Origin: Bdellovibrionota bacterium FG-1
Lineage (GTDB): Bacteria; Bdellovibrionota; UBA1018
Length of the DNA: 38,775 bases
NCBI GenBank assembly: GCA_051382295.1
Contig: JBBCAW010000110.1
Location: 1 to 38,775 of the forward strand
Direction of reading: 5' to 3'
Of the stretch, positions 20,857 through 36,445 are shown in pieces; position 1 is the first letter of the stretch; each line of letters opens with the position of its first letter. The notes beneath the pieces were generated by a model that saw only the letters and a program-made list of their open reading frames with translations, was not told where the DNA came from and did no database searches. The position numbers and the translations under genes were made by a program.

Positions 20857-20916
20857 TAGCCAGTTTTCCAAGGAGACGTGGATTGCAACAGGTTTGAAAT
20901 CACAAAGGGTTCCAAT

Positions 20917-21222
20917 ATGGAAATCACCGAAGTAAAAGTCTTCCCGGTCGAAGAAGAAAAGTTAAAGGCCTACATTACAATCGTCCTGGACAATTGCTTT
21001 GTCGTTCGTGATCTCAAGATCATTAGCGGAACTGCCGGACTTTTTGTAGCGATGCCCAGTAAGCGTCGAAAAGATGGAACATTTAAGGACATTGCGCATC
21101 CATTGAATCAGTCAACGCGGGAAATCATGGAAAAAACGGTTTTGGATGCATATTTAGCGGAGTTAAAAAATCCCTCATCGCGTCAGCCTAAGCCCGTCTC
21201 GTCGGGAGAGGGAACTGAGTAA
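20917..21222 (+). CDS. spoVG: SpoVG nucleic-acid-binding protein
   Basis: MEITEVKV...LKAY...LDNCFVVRDLKII.G..GLFVAMPS......FKDIAHP. Confidence 0.93.
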   Translation: MEITEVKVFPVEEEKLKAYITIVLDNCFVVRDLKIISGTAGLFVAMPSKRRKDGTFKDIAHPLNQSTREIMEKTVLDAYLAELKNPSSRQPKPVSSGEGTE

Positions 21223-21305
21223 AACCTTTGCTTGCCCCACAAGGCAAAAGCGTGTTAATTATCGTGCTTATGCGTCGGTTCCGCTAAACTGGCGATCTTC
21301 TGGGT

Positions 21306-21380
21306 TGGGGCGTCGGCAAGTGGTAAGCTAGCGGATTTTGATTCCGCCATTCGAAGGTTCGAATCCTTCCGCCCCAGCCA
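21306..21380 (+). tRNA. tRNA-Gln (anticodon TTG), CCA encoded
   Basis: Acceptor TGGGGCG/CGCCCCA+GCCA. D-loop AAGTGGTAA. Anticodon stem GCGGA/TCCGC with TTG at 21338-40. T arm GAAGG-TTCGAAT-CCTTC. Confidence 0.96.
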
Positions 21381-23118
21381 ATTTTTCATCAAAGCCAACT
21401 TTTTCCGCTGGAATCAAATCAAGCGACGAGTTGGACTTCAAAACAAACCGTAACTCCCGCTTCCCATCCTTCCCCATCTCACCCACCACAATCCCATCAA
21501 ACAAACTCCGATAAGCTTTTTTCAGGGCCACTGGGTCCTGCTCCTGAATCAAATCCATGATCTTCCGGGCGTTGTCTGCCAGATCGCGCCACTTGAAATC
21601 ATCCGTCCCTACTTCTGACTTCTTTTTGTCTAATAGAGTCACAGCCGCCTCCAGGGTCTTGATCCGTTCCCGGATCCTTACCCCGGTGGCCTTGTACTCG
21701 CTCCGGTAGAGTTCGATCTCTTCCGCCGAAGCATCCTTGAGCAAGAAGTCGAGCTTCCGATCAGCAACCCGGCCTTCACCCCTCACCAACTCGATCTCTT
21801 GGAGTCGCTTCAACCTCTCGGCCTCAAGCAACGTCCCGGCATCCACCAGTTGCGAAGCCCTCTTCTGGATGGCCTCCCGGAGCCTGGGCGAGTTCTCAAG
21901 AACTTGCGCCACGGTCTGCCTGGCCTCGGCTTCGACCAAGTCCGCAGGAATACGGATGTCATTCTTTGCGTTCCGGTAATAGTTGTTCCTGTGGTTGGCT
22001 TCCTTGCCTCCATTGCCCCAGGCACCTGAACCAACGAACGTGGAGCCATCCAAATACTTCAAGAGCCCCTGAAGCAGATAGATCCGGGACAGCCTTGTGT
22101 TCTTTTCTTTGTTTCCCGCGATCTTCTTGATCGTTCGTTGGACGCTTTGCCATAACTCCAGGTCAATAACGCATCCATGAGAAAGATCCACGACCCTGTG
22201 TTGCTCGTAAGGCATAAGACGGTCTTGCCTCTTGTCTTTGAACTTTGCATTTATTTCCCACTTTCCGATGTACTTCGGATTGCCGAGCAATGTCCGAAGG
22301 GCCGCACAGGTAAATGGCTGCCCGTCCTTGTTCTTTAAACCCAGGCGATCACATTCCTCTCGCAGCCTTTGGTAGGATTCATATTTCAGAAATGTTCTCA
22401 TGATCCACTCGACGGCCTTTAGCTCATCAATATTAGGTTGGTAAAAGCCAACCTTCGCTTCGCCATTTTTTACTAGTTGGTCCAATCCAAAGAGTTTATG
22501 GGTGGCATTGAACTTTCCAGAGTTAATCATTGCAGAAAAAACGCTCTCCTTTAGTCGCTTCGAGTTGACTCTGGATTCATATTCCGCGAAAGCACTCAAA
22601 ATATCCAACTGGACCAGATGTGATGGATCGTTGGGGTTGAATGGAAACCCCCGAATTACAATCTCACAATCATGATCGATGCAAAGTTTGAAGAACCCCT
22701 TCCATATCAGGGTTTCTCGCGCAATACGTGTAAGTTCCTTAACGATAACAAACCTTCTTCGGCCCTGCTTGATGTCTCGCTGAAGGCGTTGAAACTCTGG
22801 TCGGTTATCATGAGTCCCGGTTATGCCCGGCTCAATGTAGACATCGACGATTCGGTAATTGATCTTGTTCGCGGTTGACCGCGCAATCGCCTCTGCAAAG
22901 AGAATATGGATCTGCTGTTCGAGTGAACCCTTTTCAACCGAGACTTGCTCTAGGTCCGAAAGTCGGATGTAAGCAGCGCCATCGATTGTTTCCCAGTCAG
23001 GGTTGACCGGCTTCCACTTCCGAATGTAGTCTCTCGAAATTGCTTTGCAGTCGGAAATGATCCGTTCAATGTTTGCCCTCTGCTCAGCTCGACTCAGGTC
23101 CGCTACTTTCTTCTCCAT
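21328..23118 (-). CDS. Large serine recombinase (integrase)
   Basis: YIRLS catalytic motif, 'YIEPGITG...RPEFQRL', 'KELTRIAR', 'AFAEYES..S.R', recombinase domain (LGNPKYIG), degenerate Zn-ribbon (YLLQGLL) and coiled coil. Confidence 0.9.
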   Translation of the reverse strand: MEKKVADLSRAEQRANIERIISDCKAISRDYIRKWKPVNPDWETIDGAAYIRLSDLEQVSVEKGSLEQQIHILFAEAIARSTANKINYRIVDVYIEPGITGTHDNRPEFQRLQRDIKQGRRRFVIVKELTRIARETLIWKGFFKLCIDHDCEIVIRGFPFNPNDPSHLVQLDILSAFAEYESRVNSKRLKESVFSAMINSGKFNATHKLFGLDQLVKNGEAKVGFYQPNIDELKAVEWIMRTFLKYESYQRLREECDRLGLKNKDGQPFTCAALRTLLGNPKYIGKWEINAKFKDKRQDRLMPYEQHRVVDLSHGCVIDLELWQSVQRTIKKIAGNKEKNTRLSRIYLLQGLLKYLDGSTFVGSGAWGNGGKEANHRNNYYRNAKNDIRIPADLVEAEARQTVAQVLENSPRLREAIQKRASQLVDAGTLLEAERLKRLQEIELVRGEGRVADRKLDFLLKDASAEEIELYRSEYKATGVRIRERIKTLEAAVTLLDKKKSEVGTDDFKWRDLADNARKIMDLIQEQDPVALKKAYRSLFDGIVVGEMGKDGKRELRFVLKSNSSLDLIPAEKVGFDEKLAGAEGFEPSNGGIKIR

Positions 23119-23614
23119 AAAACAAGTCCTCTAATATCGGAGCCAGGTAACCGGCCACCTCATCAACGTCCATTCCGTGAATAGATCCTTCTAATCGGAC
23201 GTTGAAGGCAATGCACCGCTTGCGGAGTCGGATAGCCTTGGCGTATCGCTTTGCTTTTCGATTGCTCACACAGGCTTTGCAGTTGGCGTCTCTGCCATCA
23301 GGCTTCGTTCGATTCCTGTCGAATTTGGCTAACGGTTTGGATCTTCCGCAACACTTACATGACTTTTCGACTTCAGAAGCCTTCGGGCAATCAGGCCGTA
23401 TAAACGACTTCTGATCGGTGAGCAACGTCCATGAAGGATCGGACTGTCCAAATAAAGCACAATCGGGGCTGATGGTGTCGATGCAGCAAGGCTGATGGGT
23501 ATCCCAGTCGATGGCCTCGGCCTCATTCCACGGAAGGTTAACGGAAACACACCCGGCGCCTATAACCAGCGCAACGATCGAACCAATCCCTATCCGCCTC
23601 CCGATTTCATTCAT
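23084..23614 (-). CDS. Hypothetical protein with C4 zinc finger; overlaps the integrase start (start uncertain)
   Basis: CKCCGRSKPLAKF...DGRDANCKAC followed by a basic helix. Confidence 0.5.
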   Translation of the reverse strand: MNEIGRRIGIGSIVALVIGAGCVSVNLPWNEAEAIDWDTHQPCCIDTISPDCALFGQSDPSWTLLTDQKSFIRPDCPKASEVEKSCKCCGRSKPLAKFDRNRTKPDGRDANCKACVSNRKAKRYAKAIRLRKRCIAFNVRLEGSIHGMDVDEVAGYLAPILEDLFYGEESSGPESS

Positions 23615-29846: not shown

Positions 29847-30677
29847 TCACGGCCAACTGCTGCTAGCTCTGATTTTCTGGCAATAGCTTTTCTTTGTATT
29901 TGCGCGATTGAAGTGGGGTTGCACGTTTGGCGAGTGGAAATTACCGCGTGGCTTTCCGAAATCCCGTGCGATTTGTTTAACCTCAACCATCAGCTGTTCG
30001 TAGTCGGCCATGCAGTCCTTGTATCGTGCCTCTCTTGCCTGGGACTGGTCGACGCTTCGATGATGCAACGGTGGGGTTGGTGTTTCTGCTCTGACGACTG
30101 ACTCTGTCCTGATCATGATCGTTTGAACTTTGGCCTGTTCGATAGCAGACATCTTTGCCTCAAGTACTGCCATCTTTTGCTCGGCAGCGGCGGTGCGGCT
30201 TTCTTGCTTTCCGATTATCATATAAACGCGGTCCTTGATGCTGTTCCAGACCGAATCCTGGGGAGTGAGTCCCTCAAGTTGCGAATAAATATCCTGATTT
30301 CGAACGAGTTCTGGGTTTGATAGCGACCTTCGGCTTTCGCCCTTTGCTTTGATTGCCTCTTCGCAGGCGGCAGTGTTAATACCGGCACGAGCGTAGGCTC
30401 TGAAGTTTTTGTCGGAAAGTTGTTCCAGATACCGATCCCAAATGACGATATCTCTGTGGGCAAGTGAACACTCTGAAATCACGTTCTTCACTGCCATCGA
30501 CTCCGCTTTGAACCGGGCCACTTCAGGGGTTGGGCCGAGGCCCTGTCCTGCGTGCATGATATCCCCACCGATAACGTGCCTTGATTGGCGATCGAGCCAT
30601 TCAGGGCGTGGTTCAGCAGCCATACACAGGGTGATAGTTAAAATGAAATACAGGATTGAGAGTGCGGTGACCTTCAT
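29847..30677 (-). CDS. Secreted protein (LPP20/FlgT-N-like G.G.T...A...A...A motif, then coiled coil and Cys pairs)
   Basis: Signal peptide MKVTALSILYFILTITLCMAA and GQGLGPTPEVARFKAESMA. Confidence 0.6.
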   Translation of the reverse strand: MKVTALSILYFILTITLCMAAEPRPEWLDRQSRHVIGGDIMHAGQGLGPTPEVARFKAESMAVKNVISECSLAHRDIVIWDRYLEQLSDKNFRAYARAGINTAACEEAIKAKGESRRSLSNPELVRNQDIYSQLEGLTPQDSVWNSIKDRVYMIIGKQESRTAAAEQKMAVLEAKMSAIEQAKVQTIMIRTESVVRAETPTPPLHHRSVDQSQAREARYKDCMADYEQLMVEVKQIARDFGKPRGNFHSPNVQPHFNRANTKKSYCQKIRASSSWP

Positions 30678-30755
30678 CGTTTTTTCCCGTTTTTTGAAGC
30701 ATCAAGAACAAATCTCCGAGCGAAGTCATTTTTTAGCCCTCTGTCCGTTGGGCCA

Positions 30756-31220
30756 TCAGGCAACATTAGTAGTGCCAGTAACATACAGTAATTCCAATCT
30801 GGATTTGAAGACCAATACTCCGAACACTCTTTCATCGGAGTTCGCGAGGAGATCTCTCGCCCTTAACATGAGACCCTCAAGGATTTCAGTTTTGTCGAAA
30901 TGACGTAATATTTCGTCCGACAAACTCAGGGTATGGATGTCGCAACCATCAATTAGGCAGCGGCTGACTATGGCAGTCAAACCGTCACCAGCGGCCTTTC
31001 GGGTCTTAATGTGCGCCAAGAGATGCACAACGATTGCCGAGGAAATCGATGGGTCTTGATTGTCCTGCTCGTTAAATGAAATCTTCACCAACTCATCCAC
31101 TATACTTACGTTATCTGAATTCGCACAGTTTACTTCTCTTTGAACGGAGATCCCCGGCCCTAATACAGGTTTTATATTGTCAGCTTTGGTGTTTGAGTTG
31201 CCCTTGGCTTTGAGTTTCAT
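30756..31220 (-). CDS. Hypothetical protein (154 aa)
   Basis: Starts 6 nt after the stop of the ClpX-like gene. No family recognised. Confidence 0.6.
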   Translation of the reverse strand: MKLKAKGNSNTKADNIKPVLGPGISVQREVNCANSDNVSIVDELVKISFNEQDNQDPSISSAIVVHLLAHIKTRKAAGDGLTAIVSRCLIDGCDIHTLSLSDEILRHFDKTEILEGLMLRARDLLANSDERVFGVLVFKSRLELLYVTGTTNVA

Positions 31221-31226
31221 TCTTTA

Positions 31227-32159
31227 CTAAACTTTAGCCCCGTGACATTTTTTTACGATCTCTTTCGTGATAGTCACGACCCCTTTAGGGCAGCCAAAAA
31301 TAATAAATTCTTTAATCTCTGACATTATCTTAGGTACGATCCTCATTCCATACTTTGGATTCTGTGCTGCCATTGCTAACTCTAAAAAGGCGGTGTTGTC
31401 GAATTCAACCTCAAACCCCTGTTCCTTCATCTCATCAAAAAATGTCACGATCATCTCGTCCTGGGCAACGCGCCTAACGACATCTTCAGTACTTGGGAGG
31501 TCAGTGGATGCGAATTTCTGTATCCGCCCAAGAAGCTCATTCTTAAAGCCATACTTTATGAGATCATCTGAATTCAATTTTGGCTGCGCCTGCTTCATTT
31601 CGTCGGTATAAGAGAACGCTCCGGCAAAAATCCACAGCGAGTTTCGAGTGTCAATGGCACCCTCTTGGATTCCTTGAATCAGCGTGAGCAGCTCCGATTG
31701 CAGTGAGTGGCTCTTATGAATGTCCCCACCGTTTGCAAATTCTGAGAGTTTATCAAACTCATCCAAAATGACGATGCAACCTCTCGAAGCCATCATATTC
31801 CCGCTAAAAAATCCAGTAAGGGAGTCTCGCAATGTATTTCCAACGTAGCCAGATGGTACAAGGCCAGAAGCATCGATCAACAGATAGGGGAGTTCAAAAT
31901 CAGGAACACATTGTTGGAGTAAATAAGTTTTACCAGAGCCACTCGGACCAGACACCAATAGATGCATTCGCCTGGTTCGGTTATTGATGAACTCTGACAA
32001 TGACAGCGCTAAAGACTGCTTGTATTTGGTGTTACCGATAATAGCTCTGTCTAACCGATCAAAAATAGACTGAGCGTTCCATGCCGCCTTGGATTTTGAC
32101 TTCTCCGTCTCTACCAAGGCCATTATTTCCCTAATTTTGGCTTCATCGAACTGTGACAT
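31227..32159 (-). CDS. ClpX/HslU-clade AAA+ ATPase, minimal (no Zn-binding domain, no IGF loop)
   Basis: IIGN, GPSGSGKT, DAS...GYVG, VILDEFDK, LQSELL.LIQG, IDT.N.LWIFAGAF, DLIKYGF..ELLGRI, YGMR. Confidence 0.85.
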   Translation of the reverse strand: MSQFDEAKIREIMALVETEKSKSKAAWNAQSIFDRLDRAIIGNTKYKQSLALSLSEFINNRTRRMHLLVSGPSGSGKTYLLQQCVPDFELPYLLIDASGLVPSGYVGNTLRDSLTGFFSGNMMASRGCIVILDEFDKLSEFANGGDIHKSHSLQSELLTLIQGIQEGAIDTRNSLWIFAGAFSYTDEMKQAQPKLNSDDLIKYGFKNELLGRIQKFASTDLPSTEDVVRRVAQDEMIVTFFDEMKEQGFEVEFDNTAFLELAMAAQNPKYGMRIVPKIMSEIKEFIIFGCPKGVVTITKEIVKKCHGAKV

Positions 32160-32161
32160 GT

Positions 32162-34330
32162 CTAACCCGCCTTCTTGATGCCTGTGATATTTAGGAGTTC
32201 CTCAACGTCAGCTCTTGAAACCCTTTCTGCATGTTCCGTGATTATGTGTCTCGTCTTATGGCGTCTGAAGAAAGTTTGATCGATTTTATCGAAGGCTCTG
32301 ACGAATCCGCCTGTTTCCATACAATAATGACAAAGTAGTGCAAGCGCATCGTCATCGTATTCTAAACCCCGCCTTGTGCAAACATGACCCACGGCTTTCA
32401 TTAAAGTTTCCAACGTCCAACCTGGGAATCGCCAGTCCGAGAAGTCTATACTTCCCCCTAATGCATTTCCAAAAATAGCTGTCAGACCATTAGTCAGCTG
32501 AAGTGCCGAATTATCCAAAGACGGTACCGTTCTCAAGAAAACAAAATATACAGGCTTTAAGGAATAGTTTGTTTTCAGCGCGTGGCGAAAGTCCATTAGT
32601 TCAGGCGACGGCCCGTTTGCCGCGTCTGTATCAAAAAACTCGTCTGGCAAATCAAATAGAACGAGCAGTCGTTTCTCTACAGTATTGGCTACTTGCAAGG
32701 AGCTGCAATCCGAGATTTTCACATACTTAACGCCTAAGTCGGGCAGGTTGAGGCCAGGAATTTCGTCAGTCAATCCGGAAATCCGTTGCGCAACCTCAGT
32801 TTTCCCGGTCCCTTGGGTTCCCCAGAAACATCGCATTCTACTTTTTGAGCTTAATAGAAAATCCTCTAGGTCCACCGAGAAGTGTTTTATGATTGAATCT
32901 AGTCCAACCATTCCCGTCATACTTTTTGTCAATTGTATTCTGATCTCAACAGCCGTCAACTTGACTGGAGGTGAAGTATTTTCCAATTCTTCCGACTTTG
33001 AAGTATCTTTCAGTAGTGCTCTAATTCTGTTATCAAATGTCTTGTCACAGGCCGCCTCACCAGCGTTATCTGTAATTCGTTTATCAGCGCCGTGGTGGAG
33101 CAACAGTGTCACTGCGAGTTCATGGTCATTTGCTGCCGCAATCATAAGTGCCGTTTGAGATTCCCTATTTTGTTTATCTAGGGTGGCCCCGGCTCCAATC
33201 AGCAACTCACATACATTAACAAAGCCGCCCTCCGCAGCGGCCATCAAGGGAGTATTGGATTGGTTACTTGAATTTACGTTGGCTCCGATTTTTATTAGCA
33301 GTTCAACGATGCCGTGGTAGCCACCAAGCGATGCGAGATATATGGGGGAATTTCCCTCGTCATTTTTAATTTCTGTATCGGGTTTTCTCTTTCCTATCTC
33401 CTCGGCGATTTTCAGAAAACCGTGCTCAGCGGCTATGGCTAATGACGTATTTCCGAACATGTCTTTTTCGTTAATATTCTTCATGCGAGCGATATTTTGT
33501 TTTACAAACTCCAAGTCGTCGGCCTCAATTTTTGACATAAATTCTTCAATATCCAATGCACCACTGGTGGTGTCATCTTTTTCTTGGCAAGTTCTATTTT
33601 CGTTTTGCACGCCATCACTGAATCCGTGCGCCTTGAAAATCTTTTTAAGAGCAGGACTTCCATCTTCAAAAATACCTGCCAAAAGACTATAACCTCTGGA
33701 GTCTTTGATGTAAGGACTAGCTCCTTTTTTTAAAAGTTGTTGCACAAGGTCGCCGTGATCGTTTTCTACGGCACAGGAGAGCGCAGTTTCTCGCTCTGCG
33801 TTTCGTTGATTGACATCAATGTCGGCGCTACTTAGCAAGAGGCTCGCGATTTCTAAATTTGATTGGTCTGCCGCCACAATTAAAGGAAAATTACCACTAT
33901 CGTTTTTGATGTTGGAGTTTGCACCGACTGCGATGAGCAGTTTAACAATCGAGCAATCTTCATTTGAGCAGGCGAAATGCAAAGCAGTGTCGCCACTTGT
34001 GTTTTTCAGATCTGGTTTGGCTTTATTTGTAAGTAAAAGACTGACCACATCTACATGCGAGGCGGAGGTGGCTAACATTAGAGCTGTTTCTTGCTCCTCA
34101 CTTCGGATATTTATGTCGCCGCCGGTTGCAATGAACTCACGCACTATTTGGATGTCACCATCGGAAGCGGCCTGGAGGAAAGTATCATCGCTGACATTAC
34201 CTTTATTCTTGGCCAATGAGTTACCTCTCTTTACATTTTGCGTGAGTTCGGGGGAATCCAATATCTTCCCATATGCCGACATCTTTTGATCTACCTTCCT
34301 ATCGGAAGGGGCCCTTTTTTCTTTAATCAT
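32162..34330 (-). CDS. Ankyrin-repeat protein with C-terminal divergent AAA+ domain
   Basis: Two blocks of ankyrin repeats (TALMLA, TALHFA, TPLMAA, etc.), then MVGLDSI, Walker A GTQGTGKT and Walker-B-like LLVLFDLPDE. Confidence 0.85.
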   Translation of the reverse strand: MIKEKRAPSDRKVDQKMSAYGKILDSPELTQNVKRGNSLAKNKGNVSDDTFLQAASDGDIQIVREFIATGGDINIRSEEQETALMLATSASHVDVVSLLLTNKAKPDLKNTSGDTALHFACSNEDCSIVKLLIAVGANSNIKNDSGNFPLIVAADQSNLEIASLLLSSADIDVNQRNAERETALSCAVENDHGDLVQQLLKKGASPYIKDSRGYSLLAGIFEDGSPALKKIFKAHGFSDGVQNENRTCQEKDDTTSGALDIEEFMSKIEADDLEFVKQNIARMKNINEKDMFGNTSLAIAAEHGFLKIAEEIGKRKPDTEIKNDEGNSPIYLASLGGYHGIVELLIKIGANVNSSNQSNTPLMAAAEGGFVNVCELLIGAGATLDKQNRESQTALMIAAANDHELAVTLLLHHGADKRITDNAGEAACDKTFDNRIRALLKDTSKSEELENTSPPVKLTAVEIRIQLTKSMTGMVGLDSIIKHFSVDLEDFLLSSKSRMRCFWGTQGTGKTEVAQRISGLTDEIPGLNLPDLGVKYVKISDCSSLQVANTVEKRLLVLFDLPDEFFDTDAANGPSPELMDFRHALKTNYSLKPVYFVFLRTVPSLDNSALQLTNGLTAIFGNALGGSIDFSDWRFPGWTLETLMKAVGHVCTRRGLEYDDDALALLCHYCMETGGFVRAFDKIDQTFFRRHKTRHIITEHAERVSRADVEELLNITGIKKAG

Positions 34331-35300: not shown

Positions 35301-35834
35301 ATGGCGAAGCACTACCTATATACGCCGCTCCTGCCTCACGAGGAAGCTGACCAAGCGATAAGGGATATCATTGCCGTGGCGCGAGATGCACAGATAGGCT
35401 CACCGCTGGAGGTCGTGGTCTCGTCGTGGAGGACTCTCCCTCATGGGGCACTTGTCTTCTCTGACGGACTTCACCGCTTCGGTAGCGACCCACAGTCAGT
35501 CCTGCGGACACTCCTGGCGCTTATCACTAGGGACAATGGCATCCTCATTGGATCGTGCGATTTGCGCGTCTCAAGTATCCACCGAGCGGTCCTGATTGAT
35601 TTCATGCAAGCTCTCGCTGGTGTTTCCCAGATTTACAGAAAGAGCAGGATTCGTGCGGCATTTAAAAGAAGGCGGGAACAAGGATTACCATCGGGAAGAT
35701 CGGGGGTATCTGGTGAAATTCGCCAAAAGATCCTAGCTGAGTCTTCAGGTTCGGTCAGGGACACTGCGAAGCGGTTCGGTGTAAGTAAGAGCTTTGTTGG
35801 GCAACTTCGAAAAAAGAATCGTGGTGCCGCGTGA
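35301..35834 (+). CDS. Degenerate serine resolvase-like protein with C-terminal HTH
   Basis: LHRFG (cf. DRLG), ALAG...RKSRIRAAF..RREQG..SGR, HTH SVRDTAKRFGVSKSFV. No YxRxS motif. Confidence 0.65.
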   Translation: MAKHYLYTPLLPHEEADQAIRDIIAVARDAQIGSPLEVVVSSWRTLPHGALVFSDGLHRFGSDPQSVLRTLLALITRDNGILIGSCDLRVSSIHRAVLIDFMQALAGVSQIYRKSRIRAAFKRRREQGLPSGRSGVSGEIRQKILAESSGSVRDTAKRFGVSKSFVGQLRKKNRGAA

Positions 35835-36445
35835 AAGCATTAACAGTGGCAACCTACAGCCGATGCAGTACTGCTGACAAAGGGCAAAACCCAGAAGTTC
35901 AGGTTCATGAACTGCGTAGGTATTGCGAAGCTAGGGGATGGCTGATTACCGAAGAGATTATTGATCACGGCTATTCAGGCGGCAGCGGAGCGGATCAACG
36001 CCCAGGTCTTCGGAAACTTATGGCTCTCGTTCGGGCACGGCAGGTCGATGGTGTAGTCGTTGTCAAGATGGATAGATTCTTCAGGTCGTTAAAAAATCTA
36101 GTAACAACTTTGGACGAGTTTCAAAGTTTAGGCGTCACTTTCACTGCGACCCAAGACCAGATTGATATGAGTTCTGCGAGTGGTCGCCTCATGCTTCATC
36201 TTATCGGGGCATTTAGCGAGTTTGAAAAATCGCTACTGCGCGAAAGAACAATGCTGGGTCTTGACCACGCTCGTCGCAGCGGCAAAACGCTTGGTCGTCC
36301 CAAGCGGCGGGATGACAAGGCGATTGCAGATTTGAGATCCCAAGGTCTCTCTATCCGCCAGATAGCCCTTGCCCTTGGAGTGTCAACGACGGCAGTCCAG
36401 CGCGGACTGTCTGTGACCAAATCGGGTCTCCGGAGGGCATCCTAA
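35831..36445 (+). CDS. Serine resolvase/invertase with C-terminal HTH
   Basis: YSRCST, DHGYSG, RPGL, MDRFFRS, FSEFEKSLLRERT..GL..AR..GKTLGRP, HTH. GTGA overlap with the upstream gene. Confidence 0.92.
   Translation: MKALTVATYSRCSTADKGQNPEVQVHELRRYCEARGWLITEEIIDHGYSGGSGADQRPGLRKLMALVRARQVDGVVVVKMDRFFRSLKNLVTTLDEFQSLGVTFTATQDQIDMSSASGRLMLHLIGAFSEFEKSLLRERTMLGLDHARRSGKTLGRPKRRDDKAIADLRSQGLSIRQIALALGVSTTAVQRGLSVTKSGLRRAS

Follow-up and report, generated by a model that had tools for sequence, protein, structure and literature searches.

The attP site is already known to lie inside the integrase gene in three kinds of element: the myxophage Mx8, the Dehalococcoides ssrA islands that carry DsiB and the streptococcal rumA ICEs. 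In Mx8, integration replaces a 112-residue C-terminus by one of 13 residues and yields a less active enzyme, according to the accessible parts of two reports (PMC4701971, PMC6070905). The rumA ICEs, which have single serine integrases, also carry the att site inside the integrase gene and have its C-terminus changed by integration, and the available section on them proposes a functional difference between the two forms (PMC4701971). DsiB, in the portion of McMurdie 2011 on which we draw (PMC3146451), always overlaps attL and has no stop codon of its own, and its authors suggest that the enzyme may reach full function solely on the circle or when it lies behind a tandem island. Serine integrases, as far as the consulted text of PMC11722253 goes, read both half-sites in a modular way, and at the time of Islander (2014), by the available part of that paper, they were not known at tRNA genes (PMC4383910). 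Our full-text literature search, mostly at surface level and largely confined to openly available papers, found no description of a serine integrase that gains a DNA-binding module on excision, and the accessible text of the tycheposon preprint and of PMC12884075 has no bearing on such a swap.

Here we analyse a window of 38,775 nucleotides, the whole of contig C110 in the assembly of a Bdellovibrionota bacterium (genome G000), in which the integrase gene, as in Mx8, DsiB and the rumA ICEs, is an open-reading frame without a stop inside its element that crosses the att site.

Results

An integrase gene that ends inside a host tRNA gene

ARAGORN finds a single tRNA in the whole window, a tRNA-Gln(TTG), which we assign to the host because spoVG and tRNA-Gln occur as a pair in 22 of 29 relative loci (Table 1). 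The integrase gene runs into it from the opposite strand: in the codon map, the tRNA read in antisense supplies codons 580-596 and the TAG stop, with L580 (21381-21379) placing its first base 1 nt outside, A581 at 21378-21376 and R596 at 21333-21331, and the CTA complementary to the stop covers the final two bases of the 3' D-stem strand and the next unpaired base. The preliminary description was right that the integrase frame reads antisense through tRNA-Gln, ends in the peptide it quoted and stops at the 3' side of the D-stem. When 24 tRNA-Gln(TTG) genes are read backwards in the same phase they give a similar peptide, 17 codons long in 18 of them, and since they do so whether an integrase is present or absent, the tRNA-antisense peptide is passive. 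The T-stem of the window tRNA (21353-21371) is unique among these 24 genes, carrying compensatory changes relative to the commonest form.

Table 1. Positions of the integrase, its target and the island features in the window
Feature	Position	Strand	Basis or remark
spoVG, host gene flanking the island	20878-21222	+	Domain search, synteny
Promoter-like motif upstream of tRNA-Gln	21232-21260	+	Similar by eye in several relatives
Host tRNA-Gln(TTG), integration target	21306-21380	+	ARAGORN; spoVG-linked in 22 of 29 relative loci
Large serine recombinase (integrase) ORF, 596 aa	21328-23118	-	ORF translation
TAG stop borrowed from the D-arm antisense	21330-21328	-	Codon map; host side of predicted crossover
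tRNA-antisense filler, codons 582-596 (15 residues)	21331-21375	-	Predicted lost on excision; pLDDT <50
Predicted crossover dinucleotide, bases 5-6 from CCA	21375-21376		Inferred from relatives; arm offset match
Element-side attL arm (P arm), inside integrase codons ~568-581	21377-21416		Arm comparison
Island body, right end outside the contig	21377-38775		Gene content
Small serine resolvase with C-terminal HTH	35831-36445	+	Domain search
143-nt repeat, common to three other contig ends	38633-38775		Breaks the assembly

By its sequence and predicted structure the integrase is a large serine recombinase. Pfam places a resolvase domain (PF00239) at residues 48-192 (E 3e-19), in which Y50, R52, L53 and S54 are invariant across 30 sequences and Ser54 is the catalytic serine, and a recombinase (RD) domain (PF07508) at residues 231-332 (E 2e-13). 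The model adds a zinc-ribbon-type domain at ~350-560, built of strands 353-391, helices 392-539 forming a long coiled coil and strands 540-560; this region has no Pfam zinc-ribbon match and no four cysteines (Cys4). Foldseek matches the full length to SPbeta integrase (E 8e-19) and phiC31 integrase also matches over its length. The model is confident to about residue 560 and its pLDDT is below 50 from residue 572 to 596; as the folded protein ends at ~560-570, all known domains lie before the tRNA overlap. Membership of SCCmec CcrB was rejected (NCBIfam NF047343, 86.5 bits against a cut-off of 900).

The genes neighbouring the integrase have no Pfam match. One of them, a 176-aa ORF (23084-23614) immediately upstream that overlaps the integrase start, contains paired cysteine motifs, has no NCBIfam match either and is a candidate cofactor gene. 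The remaining cargo comprises a ParB-N protein (27454), AAA+ ATPase and ankyrin-repeat genes (29847-34330), the small serine resolvase and mostly unknown genes. As for transcription signals, a consensus promoter scan called 0 promoter-like sites and did not call the motif upstream of the tRNA, there are no terminator-like sites at 21380-21940 and the three sites in the region are at chance level. A hairpin of about -12 kcal/mol is possible at 21395-21434, past the tRNA and within the last codons of the integrase, and the absence of a T run sets it apart from a typical terminator. G361 has a hairpin with a T run beyond attR, and two other flanks that were checked contain hairpins of ambiguous significance. 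On this sequence, silencing of the convergent integrase gene by read-through from the tRNA, which the preliminary description had raised, is plausible.

Antisense overlap is a family trait

Of 50 distinct integrase ORF ends compared, that of the window and those of related genes, 36 overlap a tRNA or tmRNA in antisense; contig ends truncate three of the remaining 14. The counts are not independent of one another, as the relatives share descent, and because 36 of 50 ends share it the overlap exceeds chance; it is a trait of the integrase family. The targets of the 36 comprise 11 RNA types, ten of tRNA and tmRNA, the latter in five cases, and the window integrase is the sole one at tRNA-Gln (1 of 36). 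Between them the fillers span 4-56 codons and vary freely in length and sequence, and 28 of the 36 overlaps lie in phase 1, as in the window.

Among the 120 homologues listed, 75 end in a motif resembling tRNA or tmRNA antisense by a loose pattern and 10 end as tRNA-His would give, with three carrying a long extra tail, 26 having unclassified ends and six being short. The few named homologues are mostly Bdellovibrionota, and matches to the integrase occur in only two of 115 other genomes of the same order, both at tmRNA. A FastTree built from the window integrase and homologues up to P0076 of at least 540 aa, 76 sequences in all, groups the former with tRNA-Asn-type integrases at a support of 0.87, the target labels being taken from peptide patterns. 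No relative was found in viral contigs by tblastn among 81 pattern matches, nor was there an exact arm match. Three homologues (P0005, P0006 and P0009) carry the arm-encoded peptide twice at the C-terminus with ~50 residues between the copies, an arrangement that looks like two att sites flanking a tiny relic element.

Predicted crossover near the tRNA's 3' end

To locate the crossover we matched 13 relative integrases each with the nearest upstream tail copy and rebuilt attP in silico. In seven pairs the two ends coincide over 6-9 nt at the tRNA's 3' end and the attP symmetry peaks at bases 5-6 from the CCA (18-32 of 40, against ~9-11 at other centres), and in two further pairs, in which the called gene ends are not CCA, it peaks at 19, two bases from the called end. 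In nine of the 13, attP is imperfectly palindromic about a centre close to the tRNA's 3' end, and rejoining gives an in-frame integrase fusion that continues for 152-205 aa past the junction, compared with 12-31 in the integrated state. The four other pairs are not cognate (3-4 nt shared, no symmetry peak) and are probably neighbours within tandem arrays. The host flanks that form one half of attB look unrelated among the non-tandem elements.

The window arm, compared with 14 arms of seven elements, fits best at the CCA-end offset (13.6 of 36), a modest margin over the next-best of the 51 offsets tried (12.6 of 36). Since the window integrase shares phase and arm offset with its relatives, its crossover is predicted at 21375-21376, within codons 581-582, and the stop codon, ~45 nt deeper into the tRNA, would lie on the host side. 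The preliminary description had started from the usual case of tRNA-targeting elements, a crossover in the anticodon or T arm with restoration of the 3' part of the gene; the relatives, which cross at bases 5-6 from the CCA end and duplicate only ~6-9 nt, speak against such a crossover and make a sizeable displaced tRNA fragment unlikely. Its broader claim, that a host-side stop gives the circle a different C-terminus, is supported by the nine of 13 pairs and by natural fusions.

A tail joined to the integrase in relatives

The sequence beyond the junction contains weak HTH matches followed by a stretch like the N-terminal half of PF07508, and is recombinase-domain-like; residues 169-246 of SPbeta integrase are similar to it (E 6e-6). 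The model of the tail consists of two small domains, both helical (mean pLDDT 82), and gave nothing in Foldseek at E 0.001 or better, the best matches being SPbeta integrase and a paired domain. Of 35 distinct tails, 29 have at least 33 open codons ahead of the HTH, by an approximate measure, and four share a single ORF with the C-terminal part of an integrase. Natural integrase-tail fusions occur in three of the 120 homologues listed (P0022, P0026 and P0061), whose long forms fall at three places in the 76-sequence tree, and in P0129 a pre-junction peptide almost equal to that of the window integrase is followed by a tail. Tandem arrays generate such fusions in the chromosome (L136, L138, L145 and L165; G407, G408 and G412), so the fused ORFs demonstrate the fused frame and not circles. 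In two complete genomes there are 11 and 32 matches to the tail, many of which are broken. A search for longer tail fusions scored none among 7996 candidates, and the same search missed known fusions.

The preliminary description had proposed a built-in stability or directionality switch. Degradation tags (degrons) follow rules for their ends, with which we compared both ends of the integrase: the last residues are -KIR in the integrated form and basic or variable in the tails, so that neither the short nor the long form looks tag-like. A degradation-tag model was rejected on this comparison, a stability switch finds no support in it, and the gain of a domain is the better fit. A role of the swap in directionality would be plausible.

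Proposed mechanism and alternatives

We lean towards the following account as a whole. The integrase gene runs into the tRNA and stops there, the attachment site probably falls inside codons 581-582, and excision would swap the 15 filler residues for a predicted DNA-binding tail of ~155 residues, so that the long enzyme of the circle likely integrates well and the inserted short form is weaker. A cut 5-6 bases from the CCA would leave one attB half made of four tRNA bases and arbitrary host DNA, a poor half-site, for which a DNA-binding module carried by the circle form alone would compensate by supplying grip during integration. Loss of the tail would then disfavour excision, by analogy with the less active short form of Mx8, and together with tRNA read-through opposing the gene would hold the island where it is. 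That the job of the tail is half-site grip or the setting of direction is speculative, at rather less than even odds. We give rather less than an even chance to the general form of the idea, that serine integrases centred on the Bdellovibrionota, cutting near the 3' end of at least 11 tRNA or tmRNA kinds, use recombination to attach and remove a two-part DNA-binding module, a natural self-made fusion of integrase and cofactor that would set direction and accept an arbitrary host half-site.

The first alternative, which we consider unlikely, is that the tail acts as a regulator or directionality factor, produced by itself from a start created by the CCA at attR, which drives excision in trans and, once fused on the circle, holds back re-integration. 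Engineered integrase-RDF fusions do favour attL x attR in the available part of PMC5737554, many tails (49 matches) are called as separate proteins and a stand-alone gene with the tail domain exists (C28:2490-3188), yet the tail resembles a DNA-binding domain, and a promoter and ribosome site would need to come from variable host DNA. The attR junctions themselves can be read both ways: six of the nine in cognate pairs begin with ATG, GTG or TTG, but the TG is forced by the CCA, and the other three remain in frame without such a start, so a fusion is favoured over a separate gene.

Alternatively the swap may be real and yet no switch, the tail doing other work on the circle (repression of island promoters, for example) or none in recombination, with both forms recombining alike. 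Every domain of a working serine integrase precedes the junction, filler length and sequence vary freely, and McMurdie 2011, in the portion available, lists a trivial explanation for DsiB (PMC3146451). We nevertheless regard this as improbable, as the in-frame link is kept across integrases that are ~40-50% identical and across many targets.

Search for the far end of the island

Direct reconstruction of the circle is possible in relatives only. The attR and tail of the window island were not found in the G000 assembly, and since the contig ends in a repeat we infer the circular form of this island from its kin; of the check that the preliminary description had suggested, rebuilding and translating attP, the part on relatives gave nine of 13 in-frame fusions whilst the part on this island ended at the search for its attR. 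The 143-nt repeat, found at four contig ends, cuts into genes on at least three of them and no inverted copy was found; it is probably an insertion sequence whose body is missing from the assembly, and linking contigs across it did not find the other end.

Elsewhere in G000 there are three orphan tails (L089:736-1203, L090:2739-3242 and L001:1952-2416), with two tRNA-His-like cores and one like tRNA-Met/Ala/tmRNA, and integrases belonging to them were not found in the assembly. There is also the stand-alone gene on C28 (L089), whose 232-aa product has an HTH and a recombinase-like module behind an N-terminal part of its own. As partners for the window attL the orphan tails on C28, C1 and C143 were rejected, sharing 3 nt with it and scoring 7-12 of 40, a background level, at the expected centre; the one on C28 reaches 18 of 40 when shifted off-centre by one base, but its core differs and its frame does not fit. 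A genome-wide arm search over 2642 core-matching sites gave a best score of 20 of 40, and the top-scoring sites open no tail ORF. The prs gene, tried as the downstream host gene, sits on C46 without a tRNA remnant, and synteny gave no link, the genes after tRNA-Gln varying between relatives.

A BLAST search for the displaced tRNA fragment proposed in the preliminary description returned short matches and a second tRNA-Gln(TTG) gene (L001:3957-4032, on C143), which stands amid mobile-element genes and has a 29-bp block in common with window positions 21324-21352. If this gene were the other end of the island, the crossover would lie in that block, stop included, and the join would leave the protein the same in both states. 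We hold this to be very unlikely: symmetry in the block forms no single peak (17-18 of 40, with centres scattered), none of the paired relatives has its crossover there and the window arm agrees best with the family arms at the offset of the CCA end. The T-stem of the C143 gene is of the common type, the window's being the exceptional one, and a ParA element follows it, like those after the spoVG-linked tRNA-Gln in three relatives (L015, L020 and L024); these points favour the C143 gene as a partner, yet a second, enclosing element would account for it equally well, and it may mark the distant end of a larger element around the window island. Scarcely credible is a further reading, in which an 8-nt tRNA-Gln-like site on C28 (~1395-1402) serves as attR and gives the circle form a short basic C-terminus of 14 residues: the site is identical to the tRNA 3' end over 8 nt, intergenic and within a tandem island array, but such 8-mers are common, the symmetry of 10 of 40 at the expected centre is background and there is no physical link between C110 and C28.

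We return, then, to excision at the CCA end. On the comparison with relatives the C-terminus of the window integrase very probably changes on excision, and it is likely that what it gains is the tail; the swap is well supported for the family, and for the window island it is an extrapolation.

Comparison with known systems

By the accessible text of PMC3146451, the missing stop of DsiB was an open question in 2011, and the complete relatives now give a defined pair of short and long proteins, a predicted crossover and att sites. On this reading integrase genes of this family are annotated in truncated form, and orphan 'recombinase family proteins' at island ends are the missing integrase halves. 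Island finders whose criteria call for a tyrosine integrase or a longer tRNA fragment, such as Islander in the part of its description available (PMC4383910), miss these islands. If the tail sets direction, it would be a new way to control serine integrases, and the family a source of tRNA-targeting integrases for genome engineering.

DsiB, as far as the consulted portion of its description goes, resembles the window integrase in being a large serine recombinase, CcrB-like, on the opposite strand and overlapping attL without its own stop. It differs in its target, which is ssrA only, against tRNA-Gln here and ten tRNA types plus tmRNA in the family, and in its surroundings, since a dsiB-dsiA-recF-parB-mom module adjoins attL whereas the window small resolvase (35831) and ParB-N gene (27454) are far from the integrase; an added DNA-binding domain does not appear in that portion (PMC3146451). 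Mx8, in the sections seen, has a tyrosine recombinase, unlike the serine recombinase of the window, whose predicted lost piece is an HTH with a recombinase-like module. The rumA ICEs, by the available account, use a protein gene as target with reciprocal exchange of 3' ends and no tRNA-antisense filler. With SPbeta, phiC31 and Bxb1 the window enzyme shares its fold, these being top Foldseek matches, and crossover at a central dinucleotide (PMC11722253, in part), and the engineered integrase-RDF fusions are alike in that a C-terminal fusion can set direction (PMC5737554, in part). For SPbeta, phiC31 and Bxb1, however, the sources as far as available give RDFs as separate proteins or artificial fusions, whereas in the present case the fusion would be formed and undone by recombination itself.
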